Source of the DNA: a bacterium
GTDB lineage: Bacteria; Bacteroidota; Bacteroidia; Bacteroidales; UBA932
NCBI GenBank assembly: GCA_963596955.1
Contig: CAVBPI010000001.1
Coordinates: 1-44,426, forward strand
Length of the DNA: 44,426 nt
Reading direction: 5' to 3'
Shown: one piece after another, positions 24,667-32,361 of the stretch
Layout: the number at the start of each line of letters is the position of its first letter
Position numbering within the stretch: position 1 is the stretch's first letter
Translations under genes and position numbers: made by a program
The notes under the pieces: generated by a model
What the model was told of the DNA's origin: nothing
The model's database searches: none
What the model saw: the letters and a program-made list of their open reading frames with translations, nothing else

Positions 24667-25083
24667 ATGGACTGGACGAACATCATAATTACCCTAATTA
24701 CCTCCGGGGCGTTCACGGCCATCTACCTCCTCGGCGACCGGAAGACGGCGGCCGTGCTCGACAATGTCAGCAAGACCATCGACCAATGGCAGGAACTCCT
24801 CGGGGAGGTGAAGTGCGAACTCGCCGACCAGCGGGAAGCGTCCAAGACTGCCAAGGATGACTACGAGGCTCACCTTGTGGTGAAGGACAACAAGATAGAT
24901 TCCCTCTACAAGGAGATAGCCGTCCTGCGCGACCGCAACGACCGCCTCAGCTCCAACGTCGCCCGCCTCACAATCGTCCGCTGCTGGAAGGTGGGCTGCG
25001 GCGACCGCCAGCCCCCGATGGGAACCAAGGTCTCAGTCACCGAGGACGTCACCAACATAATCGAACAGGTAAAGATTGAATAA
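24667..25083 (+). CDS. Putative holin (N-terminal TM plus coiled coil)
   Basis: MDWTNIIITLITSG TM segment; first gene of the lysis cassette. Confidence 0.45.
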   Translation: MDWTNIIITLITSGAFTAIYLLGDRKTAAVLDNVSKTIDQWQELLGEVKCELADQREASKTAKDDYEAHLVVKDNKIDSLYKEIAVLRDRNDRLSSNVARLTIVRCWKVGCGDRQPPMGTKVSVTEDVTNIIEQVKIE

Positions 25084-25106
25084 ACTCGGATTTATCCGTT
25101 TTCACA

Positions 25107-25131
25107 GCTCCTTGACATACTGGAATTGCCG
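25107..25131 (+). promoter_or_regulatory. boxA-like plus anti-terminator element 1
   Basis: GCTCCTTGACATACTGGAATTGCCG; 25117-31 is complementary to terminator arm 26058-72. Confidence 0.6.
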
Positions 25132-25169
25132 AATATTATTTACCTTTGCAAGGTCAAAATATAACGGCT

Positions 25170-26027
25170 ATGGAAAATCAATTAACAAAGGAAACGGCAG
25201 CTCTGTTCGAGCAGTTGAAGCATACAACCAAATCAGGCGTTGAATATTGGTCCGCGCGTGAGATATATCCCCATCTGGGATATACGCAGTGGAGGAACTT
25301 TCAGAATGCGATAGAAAAGGCCAAGGAAGCGTGCAAATCGGCAACTGGAAACGTTCGGGAACATTTTGCTGATGTCAGCAAAACGATAGCTATGCCCAAA
25401 GGGGCATCAAAAGAGATAGATGATGTTCTCCTTACACGATATGCCTGTTATCTCGTTGCCCAGAACGGAGATTCGCAAAAACCAGAAATAGCCCAGGCTC
25501 AGACATATTTCGCGATTCAGACCAGATATGCGGAGATTCAGCAGATGCGTGAATATGAGAACCTTACAACTGAGGAAGAACGCCGTCTGTTTCTGCGAAA
25601 TGAATTATACAAACACAACTCACAACTTGCAGATGCAGCGAGGGCAGCTGGTGTCATTGAGCCTCGCGACTATGCCATTTTTCAGAATTACGGCTATATG
25701 GGATTGTATGGCGGTATGACCGCACAGGACATTCACAAGAAAAAGGGTCTGAAAAAGAGTCAGAAGATACTTGACCACATGGGCAGCACGGAATTGGCCG
25801 CCAACCTTTTCCGTGCGACGCAGACGGAAGAGAAACTGAGGCGTGAGAATATTCGCGGGAAGTCAAGGGCAAATGAAACTCATTATAAGGTGGGCGCGAA
25901 GGTTAGACAGACCATAAGGGAACTCGGTGGTACTATGCCAGAAAACTTGCCTACGGCGGAAAGCATCAAGTCTGTGGAGAACAAACATAAGAAACTTACT
26001 GAGAAAGAAACGAAAGAAATTCCATAA
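25170..26027 (+). CDS. dinD: DNA damage-inducible protein D (Bro-N domain)
   Basis: [56 protein letters not shown]; own promoter TACCTTTG at 25141. Confidence 0.9.
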
Positions 26028-26056
26028 ACTTATATTTTGACACAAACTTTATGGAC

Positions 26057-26091
26057 ACGGCAATTCCGGTATTTCGGGGTTGCCGTTTTTT
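26057..26091 (+). terminator. Intrinsic terminator after dinD
   Basis: ACGGCAATTCCG/CGGGGTTGCCGT stem plus U-tract; near-identical copy at 27921. Confidence 0.85.
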
Positions 26092-26116
26092 ATGTGTAAC
26101 AAATTGAATAAATGAT

Positions 26117-26566
26117 ATGGGAACAGTCAGCAAAAACTTTGACTATCGGGAATTTGAAAAGACGGACGTTCCGGGAATGCAGGTGAAGAACACAATCACC
26201 TCGACGGAAGCTCGCGACAGCATCAAGGCGCTCGTCGATAATGTCCTCCAGCCTTTGAGGGACGCATGGGGTGAACCGCTCGCAATCAACAGCGGCTACA
26301 GGTGTCCGGAGGTGAACAGGGCGGTCGGTGGCGTTCCGACCTCGCAGCACACCAAGGGAGAGGCCGCCGACGTGTGCCCGTTCGGACGCAACGGCCATGG
26401 CGACATAGAGGTTGTCCGGAAGCTCGCGACCACCGCCCGCAACCTCGGTCTGCCTTTCGACCAGATGATTCTTTACCCGTCGTTCGTCCATTTCAGCCAC
26501 AGGCTCAAAGGCGAACAGCGCGGACAGATTCTCTACAACAGGAGATACACAGGAAAGAAACTCTAA
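26117..26566 (+). CDS. Endolysin, peptidase M15 family
   Basis: INSGYRC..VN.AVGG..TSQHTKGEAAD...FDQMI...FVH. Confidence 0.88.
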   Translation: MGTVSKNFDYREFEKTDVPGMQVKNTITSTEARDSIKALVDNVLQPLRDAWGEPLAINSGYRCPEVNRAVGGVPTSQHTKGEAADVCPFGRNGHGDIEVVRKLATTARNLGLPFDQMILYPSFVHFSHRLKGEQRGQILYNRRYTGKKL

Positions 26567-26577
26567 AAATCAAAGAT

Positions 26578-26973
26578 ATGAAAGTACTTGTAGCATTGCT
26601 TCTCTATTTCCACCAGCTGCCGCAGACACTGCTGGGGTTCGTGCTTGCCATCATCTACAAGGGTACTGAAAAACTTGAACAGAAGGGAAAGTGTCTGATT
26701 ATCGTGCGTCGTTCGGTGAAGATGCACGGCGGAATCTCGCTCGGTCAGTGGGTGTTCGTTAACCAGTTCGCCGGAGAAAAGACAGTGAAGCACGAACTCG
26801 GCCACTGCATTCAGTCGCAGTACCTCGGCTGGCTCTACCTCCTCGTCATCGGCTTGCCGTCAATCCTGTGGGCGATGCTCTACGACATCCCGACAATAAG
26901 GAAGAGGTGGTCGTATTACGACTTCTACACCGAGCGCTGGGCGGACAAACTCGGCGGAGTGGTCAGAAAATGA
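26578..26973 (+). CDS. Membrane protein with HExxH motif
   Basis: KHELGHCIQS...YTERWAD; hydrophobic segments. Confidence 0.7.
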   Translation: MKVLVALLLYFHQLPQTLLGFVLAIIYKGTEKLEQKGKCLIIVRRSVKMHGGISLGQWVFVNQFAGEKTVKHELGHCIQSQYLGWLYLLVIGLPSILWAMLYDIPTIRKRWSYYDFYTERWADKLGGVVRK

Positions 26974-27001
26974 TTGTACTACAACTTGTAGTATATTGAA
27001 A

Positions 27002-27025
27002 GCTCTTTGAAATATTGGAATTGCT
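27002..27025 (+). promoter_or_regulatory. boxA-like plus anti-terminator element 2
   Basis: GCTCTTTGAAATATTGGAATTGCT; 27009-25 is complementary to terminator arm 27923-39. Confidence 0.6.
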
Positions 27026-27106
27026 TGTTATTTACAGAATTATAACATAATGTTGTTTTTCTCACACCTATTTTATACTTTTGCGTCGAACAAATTTTAT
27101 GGTATC

Positions 27107-27349
27107 ATGGCAGATTTGAGTTCTTTATTTCAGTATTATCTTGATAATCAGGATGAACTGGTCAAGAAGTATGATGGGAAATATTTGATTATTTGCAACA
27201 ATGCTGTTGTCAATGCGTTCACTTCTGAGAACGAGGCGTATATGTATGCAAAAGACAAATATGGTTTAGGAAACTTTCTTTTGCAACTTTGCACGAAAGG
27301 TCCGGAAGCCTACTCTCAACACTTTAGGTCTCGCGTAGCATTCGTATAG
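27107..27349 (+). CDS. Small DUF5678-like protein
   Basis: YYLDNQDELVKKYDGKYLII...EAY..A pattern; own promoter TACTTTTG at 27076. Confidence 0.6.
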   Translation: MADLSSLFQYYLDNQDELVKKYDGKYLIICNNAVVNAFTSENEAYMYAKDKYGLGNFLLQLCTKGPEAYSQHFRSRVAFV

Positions 27350-27350
27350 T

Positions 27351-27851
27351 ATGGAAAATAAGGCTTTTACTTTACGAAATCCGAAGTCGCTTCTTCGCGA
27401 ATTAGTGACAGACTGCAAAGTCAGTGCAGGCTTTCTCGATGCATCAGCCAGTGAAGGAATCAAATTTCTTCCCTATAAGGCAATCTGGGACACCGGAGCT
27501 ACCAACAGCGTCATTGACAAGAAAATTGCGGAAGAACTTGGTCTGATACCAAACGGCATAAGACTGGTATATCATGCGAACGGCTCTGAACGAGTTAACA
27601 GCTATAAAGTGAATATAGTGTTGCCGAACAATATTATGGTACAGATGGTCAACGTCACGGAAGGCGATTTGAACGGGGCGCAGGTGTTGATAGGAATGGA
27701 CATTATTTCTCTCGGGGACTTCGCAATAACACACAGAAATAACGGGACGGTGTTTTCTTTTCAAGTCCCGTCAACGCATGAATATGATTTTGTGAAACAG
27801 ATACAGCATGAGCGTGAGGAGCAGGAGTCGAAAAAGAAGAAGCGGCGCTGA
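27351..27851 (+). CDS. Retropepsin-like (clan AA) aspartic protease
   Basis: AIWDTGATNSVI catalytic motif and LIGMD. Confidence 0.85.
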   Translation: MENKAFTLRNPKSLLRELVTDCKVSAGFLDASASEGIKFLPYKAIWDTGATNSVIDKKIAEELGLIPNGIRLVYHANGSERVNSYKVNIVLPNNIMVQMVNVTEGDLNGAQVLIGMDIISLGDFAITHRNNGTVFSFQVPSTHEYDFVKQIQHEREEQESKKKKRR

Positions 27852-27920
27852 TGTTTGATGCTAATTCCTCCGAAATCGGGGGAATTAAATTTATTATGGC
27901 GATTTCGTCATAATTGAAGA

Positions 27921-27953
27921 ACGGCAATTCCGGTATTTCGGGGTTGCTGTTTT
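27921..27953 (+). terminator. Intrinsic terminator after the protease moron
   Basis: ACGGCAATTCCG/CGGGGTTGCTGT plus U-tract. Confidence 0.8.
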
Positions 27954-27997
27954 GTGTAATTATAATTGTACTGCAACGTGTAGTATAATGGTGTTTT

Positions 27998-28042
27998 AAG
28001 ACCAATTGATATGGGACCAGTTGATATAAGACCAGTTGATAT
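27998..28042 (+). repeat. 3 x 15-bp tandem repeat (RRGACCARTTGATAT) overlapping the spanin start codon
   Basis: Copies at 27998, 28013 and 28028. Confidence 0.85.
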
Positions 28043-28496
28043 GAGAAAGGTTTATGGATATATGATTGCAGTTGTCGCCGCGCTCATGGCCGCATCGTGC
28101 AGCCCGCGCATCGTGACGGTCGCCGTCCACGACACGACGACCGTCACCCGCATCGAAACCGTCCGCGACACCATTATTTCCGCTCCTCTTCCGGTCGAGT
28201 CCATCATCATCTCCACACCCGACACGACATCCACCGTCGAGACCTCCCTTGCCAAATCCACGGCCACCGTCACCGCCGGTCATCTCCGCCACACCATCGA
28301 GAACAAGCGCACCGCTCTCTCAGTGCCCGCAAAGATTCCCGAAAGGCAGGAAATCATCCAAGCCACCAAGGAAATCCCAGTCCCCGTCGAAATCCCCAAA
28401 CCCTACATCCCGAAATGGACCTGGTACGTCCTCGCCTGGGCAATCCTCGTCAGCCTCCTCCTCGCCGCCTCCGTCTGGCTGCGGTTCAGAGTGTAA
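28041..28496 (+). CDS. Lipoprotein with C-terminal TM; putative unimolecular spanin
   Basis: Lipobox LMAAS-C, beta-rich Thr/Val body, C-terminal WYVLAWAILVSLLLAASVW; last gene of the lysis cassette. Confidence 0.6.
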   Translation: MRKVYGYMIAVVAALMAASCSPRIVTVAVHDTTTVTRIETVRDTIISAPLPVESIIISTPDTTSTVETSLAKSTATVTAGHLRHTIENKRTALSVPAKIPERQEIIQATKEIPVPVEIPKPYIPKWTWYVLAWAILVSLLLAASVWLRFRV

Positions 28497-28615
28497 TGTT
28501 TTAATGATTAGTTCCGCCTCGGAGAAATCCGGGGCATTTTTTGTAAGTAAGTGTGTCGGAATGTTGTTTGTCGGATAGAAATTTTGCTATCTTGCAGTAC
28601 TTAAACGGAACATAT

Positions 28616-29023
28616 ATGCGAAAGGTGAAAACAATAATCGAAAGGGCTTCAGATGGATGCTTTGGCATTTATATGGCAGATGCTGAAGATATGTCCTACC
28701 TGATAACCGCTTCGGGCAGGACTTTGAAGATTGCAATGAAAGACTTTCTGGACGGCTACGAGGGCATGAAAGGACACTATGCCGAAGTTGGGAAAGAGTT
28801 TGAGGAGGTTGAATTTGATTTCGTGTTTGAACTGCCTGCATTCCTTCAGCATTACTCTCAGTTCCTGTCTTTGGCCGGTCTTGAACGGATTACGGGCGTG
28901 AACCAGAAGCAGCTCGGTAACTACATCAGCGGTTACAGGCACGCCTCGCAGAAAACTGTCAAGAAGATTGAGGATGCCGTTCACAAATTCGGCCAAGAAT
29001 TGTTGGATGTCAAACTTGTATGA
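28616..29023 (+). CDS. HicB-like antitoxin with C-terminal HTH (no adjacent HicA)
   Basis: VKTIIERASDG...G.T...A..DF N-terminal fold; SLAGLERITGVNQKQLGNYISG HTH. Confidence 0.7.
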   Translation: MRKVKTIIERASDGCFGIYMADAEDMSYLITASGRTLKIAMKDFLDGYEGMKGHYAEVGKEFEEVEFDFVFELPAFLQHYSQFLSLAGLERITGVNQKQLGNYISGYRHASQKTVKKIEDAVHKFGQELLDVKLV

Positions 29024-29447: not shown

Positions 29448-29542
29448 ACCCACAGAACAATCAATTTCGTTGCTTGTTTTATTTAACACCGGTCACTTGT
29501 GGGTGTGGCGCGGACGGCATCCGGAAGGGTGCCGTCTTTTTT
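29447..29542 (+). ncRNA. Conserved 3' pseudoknot-like element plus terminator, copy A
   Basis: AACCCAC...CCGGTCAC-loop GTGGGT-GTGGC, then a terminator hairpin; repeated twice more. Confidence 0.55.
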
Positions 29543-29895: not shown

Positions 29896-29982
29896 CCCAC
29901 ACAACCATCGTATTGGTTTTTAATTGCGCCGGCCACTCGTGGGCTGTGGCCATGGACGGCATCCGAGAGGGTGCCGTCTTTT
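29894..29982 (+). ncRNA. Conserved 3' pseudoknot-like element plus terminator, copy B
   Basis: AACCCAC...GGCCAC-TCGTGGGCT-GTGGCC, then a terminator. Confidence 0.55.
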
Positions 29983-31197: not shown

Positions 31198-32361
31198 CTA
31201 TTCCGCCACCTTGAGAATATCCACGCCCTTCAGCTCCGCCGTGGCCTTGGAGGAGCGCTGGCAATAAATCGAGGTCATCGCGAGGCTGCTGTGGTCGGCC
31301 TGCTGCTGGATGAACGAGACGGGGACTCCGGCGGCCGCGAGGTTCGTGATGCCTGTGTCCTTGAGGCTGTAGAATGCCACCTCCATCGGGAAGCCGCATT
31401 CCTCCCGGACGCATTTGTTCCAGAACGTCGCAATCCTGCGCTCAGGAACGGCCGTCTTTCCGGGGCTGAAGTCGAAGTGGCTGTGGTCGCCGAACAGGAA
31501 GAGCTTAGTGTCGCTCAGGTCGAGACGGCGGACGAAAGGCATCATCGAGTCCGGGATGGTTCTTGTGGATGTGTTGTCGTTCTTCGCGATTTCCCCGCGC
31601 ACGAGAACCGTCTGCGAGTCGAGGCGTATGTCCGAACACCTGAGCATGGCAATCTCCTTGGGGCGCATCAGGCAGCAGTAACAGAGCATGCAGAGCACGA
31701 GATATTCCGGATTTTCCCGCTCTAAATATTTCCAGAGCCTCGAAAGTTCCGCATCCGACAGAATCCTCCTCTTTTTCTTCATCAGCTTCTTCGACTTGCG
31801 GCGAATGGAAGTGAACGGATTTTCCGGGATGTACGCGCGCTCGACCATCCAGTCGAACAGGACGCGGCAGAAGAGGAGATAGTTGTTGTAGGTCCGCGGC
31901 GAAATCTTCGGGTTGCTCTCGATGGACTCCATGAAGTCGATGGCCATCGTTCCGGTGAATCCGCAGGCGTAGGTGTTCTCGTCGCAGCCGTGCGCCTGTA
32001 GCCACTCCTTTATGGTTCTGATGAACGAATTGTAACTCCTCAGTGAGTTGGCCTCAAGTTCGCGCCGTTTCGCGTCGAGGAAGGCGTCGAAAGCCTCGAA
32101 CAGCCGCTTGTATGCCTTCGGGGCGTACTTCTCCACGAGCGGGTTCCAGCCCATCGCCAGCTTTTCAGAGAGCCGTCCCATGATGGCCTTTGCCATGGCC
32201 TTGCGTTCCCGCGGCGTGTCGCCTCGGTTCACCTTGATTCTCATCCGCTTGAGCTTCATCGTTCCGGGGTCCTGGACATAATAGGTGATGTACCAGATTT
32301 TGCCCTGCGTCAGTTTAGGGGGCGTATATTCAATGTAGGGGGTCGGTTTGAAGAATGACAT
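31198..32361 (-). CDS. int: Tyrosine recombinase / integrase
   Basis: LMRPKEI (R), AKN (K), YSLKDTG (variant HxxR), QADHSSLAMTSIY (H, Y). Confidence 0.92.
   Translation of the reverse strand: MSFFKPTPYIEYTPPKLTQGKIWYITYYVQDPGTMKLKRMRIKVNRGDTPRERKAMAKAIMGRLSEKLAMGWNPLVEKYAPKAYKRLFEAFDAFLDAKRRELEANSLRSYNSFIRTIKEWLQAHGCDENTYACGFTGTMAIDFMESIESNPKISPRTYNNYLLFCRVLFDWMVERAYIPENPFTSIRRKSKKLMKKKRRILSDAELSRLWKYLERENPEYLVLCMLCYCCLMRPKEIAMLRCSDIRLDSQTVLVRGEIAKNDNTSTRTIPDSMMPFVRRLDLSDTKLFLFGDHSHFDFSPGKTAVPERRIATFWNKCVREECGFPMEVAFYSLKDTGITNLAAAGVPVSFIQQQADHSSLAMTSIYCQRSSKATAELKGVDILKVAE

Follow-up and report, generated by a model that had tools for sequence, protein, structure and literature searches.

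The window analysed here is the whole of one 44.4-kb contig (44,426 nucleotides (nt); CAVBPI010000001.1) of a metagenome-assembled genome (MAG) from the Bacteroidales that is 70% complete. Its annotation is that of a temperate tailed phage, with a head protease, a tape-measure protein and, on the + strand, lysis genes in the order holin-like, cassette 1, M15 endolysin, open reading frame (ORF) 4, cassette 2, spanin-like lipoprotein. The two cassettes carry accessory genes, or morons. Each lies in what we call a frame, with an upstream element (LE) at its 5' side and a terminator-like hairpin (T) at its 3' side. On our best reading of these sequences, each cassette would occupy a portable frame modelled in its architecture on the host rRNA operon. 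The features of the lysis operon are as follows.

24667-25083, + strand: holin-like gene (phrog_2658), the final backbone gene ahead of cassette 1
25087-25102, + strand: small hairpin CGGATTTATCCG, then TTTT, just 5' of LE1
25107-25131, + strand: LE1, a boxA-like 5' part (GCTCCTTGACATA) and a strand complementary to T1
25141-25148, + strand: TACCTTTG, -7-type promoter motif of cassette 1, 3' of LE1
25170-26027, + strand: cargo 1, DNA damage-inducible protein D (dinD), Bro-N (NF008573, 395 bits; PF02498; phrog_8036)
26057-26091, + strand: T1, a 13-pair hairpin (7 G-C), then TTTTT
26117-26566, + strand: M15 endolysin, beginning 25 nt past the T1 U-tract, with no promoter motif between
26578-26973, + strand: ORF4, a membrane-like open reading frame of the lysis cassette
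27002-27026, + strand: LE2, boxA-like GCTCTTTGAAATA and a strand complementary to T2
27076-27083, + strand: TACTTTTG, -7-type promoter motif of cassette 2, 3' of LE2
27107-27349, + strand: cargo 2a, DUF5678-like protein (PF18929)
27351-27851, + strand: cargo 2b, aspartyl protease (PF13975, PF13650)
27921-27953, + strand: T2, the same hairpin as T1 (32/33 nt) and a U-tract
28011 (or 28041)-28496, + strand: spanin-like lipoprotein, the last lysis gene, with two possible in-frame starts
28516-28541, + strand: terminator-like hairpin behind the lysis operon, unrelated to T

Gene calls agree with an earlier reading made from the letters alone (the sequence-only reading), in which dinD and the DUF5678-like protein with its aspartyl protease were taken for two unrelated morons that interrupt the lysis cassette. 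Family searches of the window proteins gave no match for ORF4. In the close relatives L074, L076 and L072 the holin, endolysin and spanin genes lie end to end or overlap: the holin-like stop lies 2 nt ahead of the endolysin start in L074, and the ORF4 stop overlaps the spanin start in L072. L074 and L076 are without any cassette. Since these genes adjoin where a cassette is missing, we conclude that both cassettes are insertions. Their G+C content (0.35-0.49) is below that of the lysis genes on either side (0.56-0.62).

T has the sequence form of an intrinsic terminator, a G+C-rich hairpin directly 5' of a U-tract, and is predicted to act as one. When up to three mismatches are allowed, LE (GCTCYTTGAMATAYTGGAATTGC) matches the window at 25107-25129 and 27002-27024 only, and the 26-nt core of T at 26058-26083 and 27922-27947 only. 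Neither search gave a match in 100 shuffles, and the twofold occurrence of each element, LE at 25107 and 27002 and T at 26057 and 27921, stands as first described. No further copy of T was found elsewhere in the MAG. A repeat search returned the T copies as a direct repeat of 33 nt at 97%, the LE copies as one of 29 nt at 83%, and the LE/T inverted repeats as 18 nt at 89% and 16 nt at 88%. The two pairings originally proposed, 15 base pairs (bp) with one G.U between 25117-25131 and 26058-26072 and 17 bp with three G.U between 27009-27025 and 27923-27939, are exact base for base. They extend further than was noted, to about 22 pairs in slot 1 and about 20 in slot 2, and cover the whole hairpin; the partners of LE1 within T1 comprise the 5' arm, the loop and part of the 3' arm. 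LE1 (25112-25139) also holds a near-perfect sigma-70-type promoter, TTGACA-N16-TATTAT (11/12 match); as a general reading of LE this was rejected, because the -10 part is absent from other LE types.

If the frame is a unit, does it recur around other cargo? It does, in about 50 viral contigs that fall into at least nine LE/T sequence types, with cargo of 0.2-4.4 kb; the expectation that other phages would carry the same frame around different genes is thus borne out. Exact T occurs in three IMG/VR contigs, in the same slot with a different Bro-N allele, and LE in eight contigs, including unrelated backbones that carry HicA/HicB or a Panacea-domain pair as cargo. A relaxed LE with the GCTC prefix gave 19 loci, the same eight true contigs and 11 chance matches, while the broader pattern TTGAMATAYTGGAATTRCC gave 55, that is 46 true LEs and nine chance matches. 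For 44 of the 46 a complementary T lies within 3 kb; for one it lies about 4.4 kb away (L160 with L225), and one is truncated. Starting from T, 32 loci were found: LE lies upstream in 28, one is the 4.4-kb case, two are cut by a contig end and one is doubtful.

Near-identical type B contigs differ only between LE and T, where the spacing runs from 202 to 2793 nt and holds 0 to 7 ORFs. In all 43 frames with a located T, cargo ORFs of at least 59 amino acids (aa) lie on the LE-to-T strand; the minus strand holds one ORF of 75 aa (L167) and three of under 60 aa (45, 42 and 52 aa). The domains that Pfam recognizes in the 28 distinct cargo proteins are Bro-N, HicA, SocA/Panacea, DUF4325, aspartyl protease, M78/HTH, DUF5053, P63C and tRNA_anti-like. 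The cargo thus includes toxin–antitoxin (TA) systems, and the same cargo families turn up in different frame types. Frame sites are confined to the lysis cassette or a genome end. The frame lies 3' of an endolysin from one of three unrelated families in types D, E, F and G, and 5' of the gene for a phrog_26448 membrane protein in types B, D and F. LE has the orientation of the lysis genes upstream of it and begins 20-150 nt past the upstream gene in seven of nine type representatives.

Across 400 genomes of the order, searched with up to three mismatches, LE was found in the window only. The isolated phages of INPHARED yielded 10 records with partial 65-74% identity to query bases 959-1595 (within dinD) and no frame. 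Only the LE/T family stood out when 195 terminator-like hairpins from 82 sequences were scanned for upstream complements, and so no second family with the same logic was found there. Rfam matched no family in the window or in seven loci. In type C (L153, L154, L155 and similar) a sequence like the 3' end of a tRNA or transfer-messenger RNA (tmRNA; GGTTCGATTCCG...) stands 30-60 nt 5' of LE and is possibly a phage attachment site; neither ARAGORN nor Rfam at gathering thresholds detected a tRNA or tmRNA beside it.

What is LE? It consists of a boxA part, G(C/T)TCTTTGA(A/C)ATAYTGGA, and a short strand, ATTRCCG. Its types read G(C/T/A)TC(T/A/C)TTGA(A/C)ATAYTGGA, and the rrn spacer or leader of the same order reads AGTTCTTTGA(A/C)(A/C/G)T(A/G)TTG(G/A/T)A. 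The first 19-20 nt of LE match the boxA region that lies about 50 nt 5' of 23S rRNA in genomes of the MAG's order, an identity that upholds the original description of LE as boxA-like. Leader and spacer were compared in the one genome among 13 relatives with an assembled 16S gene. Its rrn leader has AGTTCTTTGAACTATTGGA about 100 nt 5' of 16S, and its 16S-23S spacer has AGTTCTTTGACATGTTGGAAGAAG before 23S, just 3' of a hairpin with a U-tract. A hairpin stands 5' of LE in other types also, as it does 5' of boxA in the rrn spacer. With at most one mismatch, AGTTCTTTGAMNTNTTGGA was found in 31 of the 101 genomes searched from the order. It matches them at 60 places, many of which are at contig ends; the reversed control matches at about 24. 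Fourteen of these loci were fetched. At four the motif lies between the spacer tRNAs and the 23S start, and at the other ten no rRNA was found within 1.5 kb. The rrn locus L219 reads AGTTCTTTGACATATTGGAA and the commonest LE type GGTTCTTTGACATATTGGAATTACCG; the type B LE is identical to the L219 motif over 19-20 nt. The LE variants GCUC-, GUUC- and GAUC-UUUGA are within the range set by the boxA of Escherichia coli (UGCUCUUUAACA) and Bacillus subtilis (AUGAUCUUUGAAA), as given in PMC13753749.

The resemblance extends to a long-range helix. In the two loci with a full 23S gene (L222 and L223), a strand starting inside boxA pairs with sequence just 3' of 23S: GACGTATTGGAAGAAAAATAATTACCGT with ACGGTAGTTATATTCTTCCATACGTC in L222, and TTTGACATGTTGGAAGAA with TTCTTCCTTTTACATGTCGAA in L223. 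LE:T shares this register, both helices beginning inside boxA, and LE and the T 5' arm resemble shortened L222 strands, by either homology or convergence. Like an rrn leader–trailer helix, LE:T consists of complementary strands that flank the enclosed RNA, the 5' strand adjoining boxA. Leader–trailer helices of rrn operons are RNase III substrates, with boxC within their 5' strand (PMC10250234). According to PMC13753749, boxA alone suffices for the rrn antitermination complex, which hinders intrinsic termination and blocks Rho. The MAG encodes a NusB-family match (61.9 bits).

If LE and T pair with one another, do they also change together? In 14 type representatives we counted pairs over the T 5' arm and the first loop bases. 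Of 210 positions, 203 are paired between cognate LE and T, compared with a mean of 198.1 after permutation; the P of 0.0024 is optimistic because the representatives are related and not phylogenetically independent. Three columns switch between Watson–Crick pairs. The first is G-C in seven and A-T in five, with one G.T and one A.C; the second is C-G in five and T-A in seven, with two T.G; the third is A-T in six and C-G in four, with C-T in three and A-C in one. The part of LE that is not rrn-derived in appearance, ATTRCCG, covaries with T. In type I both LE-side changes yield G.U.

The energetics point the same way. When about 1 kb of + strand RNA was folded for each slot with ViennaRNA, the minimum-energy fold paired LE with the whole of T at a probability of about 0.9. 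The window duplexes are computed at -36.5 and -32.5 kcal/mol, compared with about -21.5 for the T hairpins, and in 12 of 12 types the duplex is the lower of the two (-23 to -44 versus -19 to -33 kcal/mol). As in a terminator/antiterminator pair, the alternative pairing sequesters the T 5' arm and is the more stable. The sense duplex is stronger than the antisense duplex in all 12 types.

One argument for pairing as RNA is weaker than the sequence-only reading claimed, namely that the G-U wobbles favour RNA pairing over DNA repeats. LE resembles the 3' arm of T, and that arm is in effect LE repeated locally in a weaker form. Any 5'-arm change compatible with the hairpin faces this LE-like 3' arm, and G.U with LE therefore arises automatically.

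Where would transcripts of the cassettes start? In 19 of 22 distinct frames the interval from LE to the first cargo gene contains TAnnTTTG, which we take to be the -7 promoter motif of Bacteroidota (background 0.00043 per nt). Both window slots have it, a placement consistent with the moron promoter that had been predicted 3' of LE. An independent promoter behind each terminator, which would have counted against the proposal, has no candidate: TAnnTTTG is absent between T and the next start codon in the two window slots and eight type representatives, and no promoter motif lies between T2 and either spanin start (28011, 28041). The next start codon follows 0-30 nt past the T U-tract, which in type D abuts the ATG. 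Given this short gap and the missing motif, the downstream lysis gene would depend on transcription that passes T.

We propose the following sequence of events. Late transcripts of the lysis operon, started upstream, would include LE, whose boxA would recruit NusB/S10 and other Nus factors to RNA polymerase. The modified polymerase would resist termination and might keep LE near the RNA exit, a hypothetical tethering. As T emerged, its 5' arm would pair with LE and not with its own 3' arm; the terminator would then fail to form, and transcription would go on into the endolysin or spanin gene that immediately follows. Transcripts from the cassette promoter, which lies 3' of LE, would be without LE and would end at T. 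In the lysogen the cargo could thus be expressed without the lysis genes. That upstream transcripts carry boxA and an anti-terminator strand past T while cassette transcripts terminate is, in our estimate, about an even bet. The observation itself is confirmed and widened, and the interpretation is coherent and agrees with the tests that sequence affords. Nus binding, termination at T, read-through and the timing of promoter activity are what we infer. As for the antitermination account as first put forward, boxA, the variety of cargo, promoter positions, covariation and stability all favour it, and its G.U argument is weakened. It also needs amendment, since the design copies both the rrn boxA and the leader–trailer helix; for the same reason processing by RNase III has to be considered, whether as an alternative or as an additional function.

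Several points weigh against the proposal. At 202-2793 nt, and about 4.4 kb in one contig, LE and T are not close together as the strands of a terminator/antiterminator switch are; translated genes separate them, far beyond the reach of classical attenuators, and a local hairpin normally folds before a distant pairing. What is documented of the E. coli rrn complex concerns mainly its action against Rho-dependent termination. The type F pairing (L197) has an internal A.C mismatch, and when LEs and T copies were compared across types, the LEs of types G and D found better partners in foreign T copies than in their own. Selection on the T hairpin by itself can account for the G.U excess over A.C. 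The fifth boxA position of LE1 is C, where relatives have T. Terminators of type C are without the clean U-tract of types A, B and D-I. Finally, type B has a second hairpin with a U-tract (GCCCGGGCGGATAGGTTCGGGC ATTTTTATTTT) between T and the phrog_26448 gene (e.g. L170, L168), for which no complement was found in LE. Pairing with LE alone therefore cannot give read-through in type B; a processive, boxA-dependent modification of the polymerase would cover this second terminator.

Might the LE:T duplex instead be mainly a processing stem for RNase III or a similar enzyme, whose cut excises or destabilizes cargo RNA or matures the lysis mRNA, with read-through left to boxA alone or to leakiness? 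The host rrn helix that starts inside boxA in the same register, the duplex length of 20-22 bp and the cleavage of rrn leader–trailer helices by RNase III (PMC10250234) all speak for this, as does a viral contig (L312) in which the strand after boxA pairs with the trailer behind a tRNA array, 2.4 kb away. Such processing is fully compatible with the anatomy of the frame and may coexist with antitermination. As the main function we think it unlikely, for it leaves unexplained why the trailer strand should be built into a hairpin in which the 3' arm copies LE and behind which a U-tract follows, a terminator/antiterminator layout.

BoxA also lies ahead of tRNA arrays in other viral contigs. The sequence GTTCTTTGAMATAYTGG occurs in at least 117 viral loci, with tRNAs downstream in six of eight checked, and in four large viral contigs (L312:3201-3217, L284:3201-3217, L263:1551-1567 and L290:3201-3217) an rrn-type boxA, GTTCTTTGACATATTGG, lies 10-25 nt 5' of an array of 10-19 tRNA genes on the same strand. 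Because the same boxA occupies this position, phages appear to use it as an RNA-level signal, and phage tRNA operons seem to use host rRNA-type antitermination. We found no description in the literature of boxA ahead of phage tRNA arrays. Does boxA alone then matter in the frame also, guarding long transcripts, as they cross foreign cargo that is poorly translated, against Rho or intrinsic termination? On this account the complementarity of T would be a historical by-product, LE being a degenerate direct copy of T or the reverse. LE and T of type B do align as degenerate direct repeats (AGCGGT...TTACCG), each preceded by GATGTAGA; boxA stands alone ahead of phage tRNA arrays; and the second type B terminator, which LE cannot pair with, fits as well. 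The account is distinctly improbable in view of the covariation of ATTRCCG with T, the presence of LE at 28 of the 32 loci found via T, and the fact that the 5' arm pairs better with LE than with the 3' arm of T itself in 12 of 12 types.

Two other phage loci carry boxA in unusual surroundings. At L279:3120-3860 a promoter-like TATCTTTG is followed by boxA with GGGTGAGTGTTGGGGTT, a 175-aa ORF and the complement AACCCCGCACTCCCCATTATGTCA; the helix sequence is a second one, with the same layout of boxA and flanking helix and no terminator hairpin. L260 has a perfect inverted repeat of about 28 nt with boxA on both arms (1982-1998 and 2605-2621), which face one another across about 600 bp; this could be an invertible segment or a leader–trailer helix.

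Could LE and T act as DNA, marking the ends of a mobile cassette or serving it as homology arms, by way of terminal inverted repeats, site-specific recombination or short-homology exchange, without an RNA role? Inverted repeats do flank variable cargo, close type B contigs do differ only within the frame, cargo families are shared among frame types, and a direct repeat surrounds cassette 2 outside LE and T:

26970-26998, + strand: 29-nt direct repeat, left copy (palindrome TACTACAAcTTGTAGTA), 5' of LE2
27962-27990, + strand: right copy, 86% identical, 3' of T2

A target duplication, an operator and a recombination site are all possible readings of this repeat. Nevertheless, we regard a purely DNA-level role as a poor prospect. 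It leaves the identity of LE with the rrn boxA unexplained, and it sits badly with the stronger sense duplex in all 12 types and with the absence of LE, the window aside, from the 400 genomes of the order. The frames lie in one orientation, mostly between the endolysin and phrog_26448 genes, at sites that are not dispersed. Miniature inverted-repeat or other transposable elements are likewise a poor match to these restricted sites, with no target duplication at cassette 1 and no transposase domain or extra recombinase among the 28 cargo proteins. The perfect palindrome of the cassette-2 repeat, TACTACAAnTTGTAGTA, is also found in relatives, where it falls within the coding sequence of their Bro-N allele (L003:3698-3714). 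As for inversion of the cassettes between their flanking inverted repeats of 16-22 nt, we give it scarcely any credence, because the repeats are imperfect, no invertase is nearby, and none of the 43 assembled frames with a located T has cargo (ORFs of at least 59 aa) on the opposite strand, so that inverting segments, which would have told against the antitermination proposal, did not appear.

How does a boxA frame with a paired terminator compare with known systems? It shares with rrn antitermination (boxA, NusB/S10/NusA/NusG/SuhB) the boxA sequence of same-order rrn operons, a hairpin before boxA and a long-range helix that begins at boxA and closes round the intervening RNA. Unlike the rrn operon, it encloses protein-coding accessory genes with their own promoter, has its trailer strand inside a terminator hairpin, and is phage-borne, within a lysis operon. 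The nut sites of lambda (boxA and boxB, with N) and its Q-dependent late antitermination are likewise a phage's use of the host boxA/Nus pathway, and there too late transcription must cross cassettes bounded by promoter and terminator. Here, however, the sequence 3' of LE varies between types and has no conserved boxB or other shared hairpin, and no N or Q homologue was identified; moreover, the signal is repeated for each cassette and matched to its terminator, whereas that of lambda occurs once, near the operon promoter.

Attenuators (the trp leader, T-box and riboswitch platforms) also have two exclusive pairings of a terminator 5' arm, of which the antiterminator is the more stable. Their partners are tens of nucleotides apart, not 0.2-4.4 kb, and in the frame the choice would follow the transcription start and not a ligand, ribosome or tRNA. 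Integron cassettes resemble the frame as promoter-independent slots with variable cargo and, in attC, a 3' hairpin whose first arm is complementary to the cassette 5' boundary; they differ in that the frame has no IntI-type integrase beside it, carries multi-gene cargo with a single T, and has boxA as its 5' boundary. Reuse of boxA outside rRNA operons for termination control is also described at CRISPR arrays and suhB (PMC5725501, PMC13753749); in the accessible parts of these papers such boxA elements are chromosomal, belong to gammaproteobacteria and come without a matching downstream terminator strand. The literature that we found covers boxA in rrn, lambda, suhB and CRISPR arrays and, supplements aside, contains no description of boxA-framed morons or of boxA in Bacteroides phages.

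Morons are defined by their own promoter and terminator, and to our knowledge the question of how a phage tolerates terminators in the middle of an essential late operon is seldom addressed outside the Q system of lambda. If the proposal is true, the solution is self-contained and travels with the slot and not with the phage's regulatory circuit, and boxA/Nus antitermination extends to phages of a phylum where it is not described. The frame would then provide a compact insulator part (about 25 nt and about 35 nt) with which gut Bacteroidota and their phages could be engineered, and a sequence signature for accessory genes (TA, defence) in phage metagenomes. In its widest form the proposal has four parts: the frame is a portable, polarity-free slot that mimics the rRNA operon in temperate phages, probably of Bacteroidota; every cassette converts late polymerases to the Nus-modified form; the same boxA drives phage tRNA arrays; and hijack of host rRNA antitermination would then be general among these phages and not peculiar to lambda. 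This bolder claim we hold tentatively, and at somewhat less than even chances.

Some further features of the phage remain to be recorded. An integrase is encoded on the - strand (31201-32361). Three tandem 15-nt units (TTGATATRRGACCAG) are found where the spanin-like gene starts (27992-28051), and the first of them resembles the start region of the endolysin, 26110-26127 (AAWTGATATGGGAMCAGT). These units look like insertion scars and leave the two starts at 28011 and 28041. Behind the lysis operon an HTH_3 protein (28616-29023) resembles the larger partner of a pair in L074 (61 aa and 134 aa), the small partner of which is missing from the window. In the viral contig L005/L073 the spanin start joins the holin-like gene at its middle, and cassette 1 and another copy of the endolysin come next; this is either a rearrangement or an assembly artefact. 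Two near-identical hairpin terminators (GGACGGCATCCG..GGGTGCCGTC), at 29512-29537 and 29954-29979, each stand behind a small gene.

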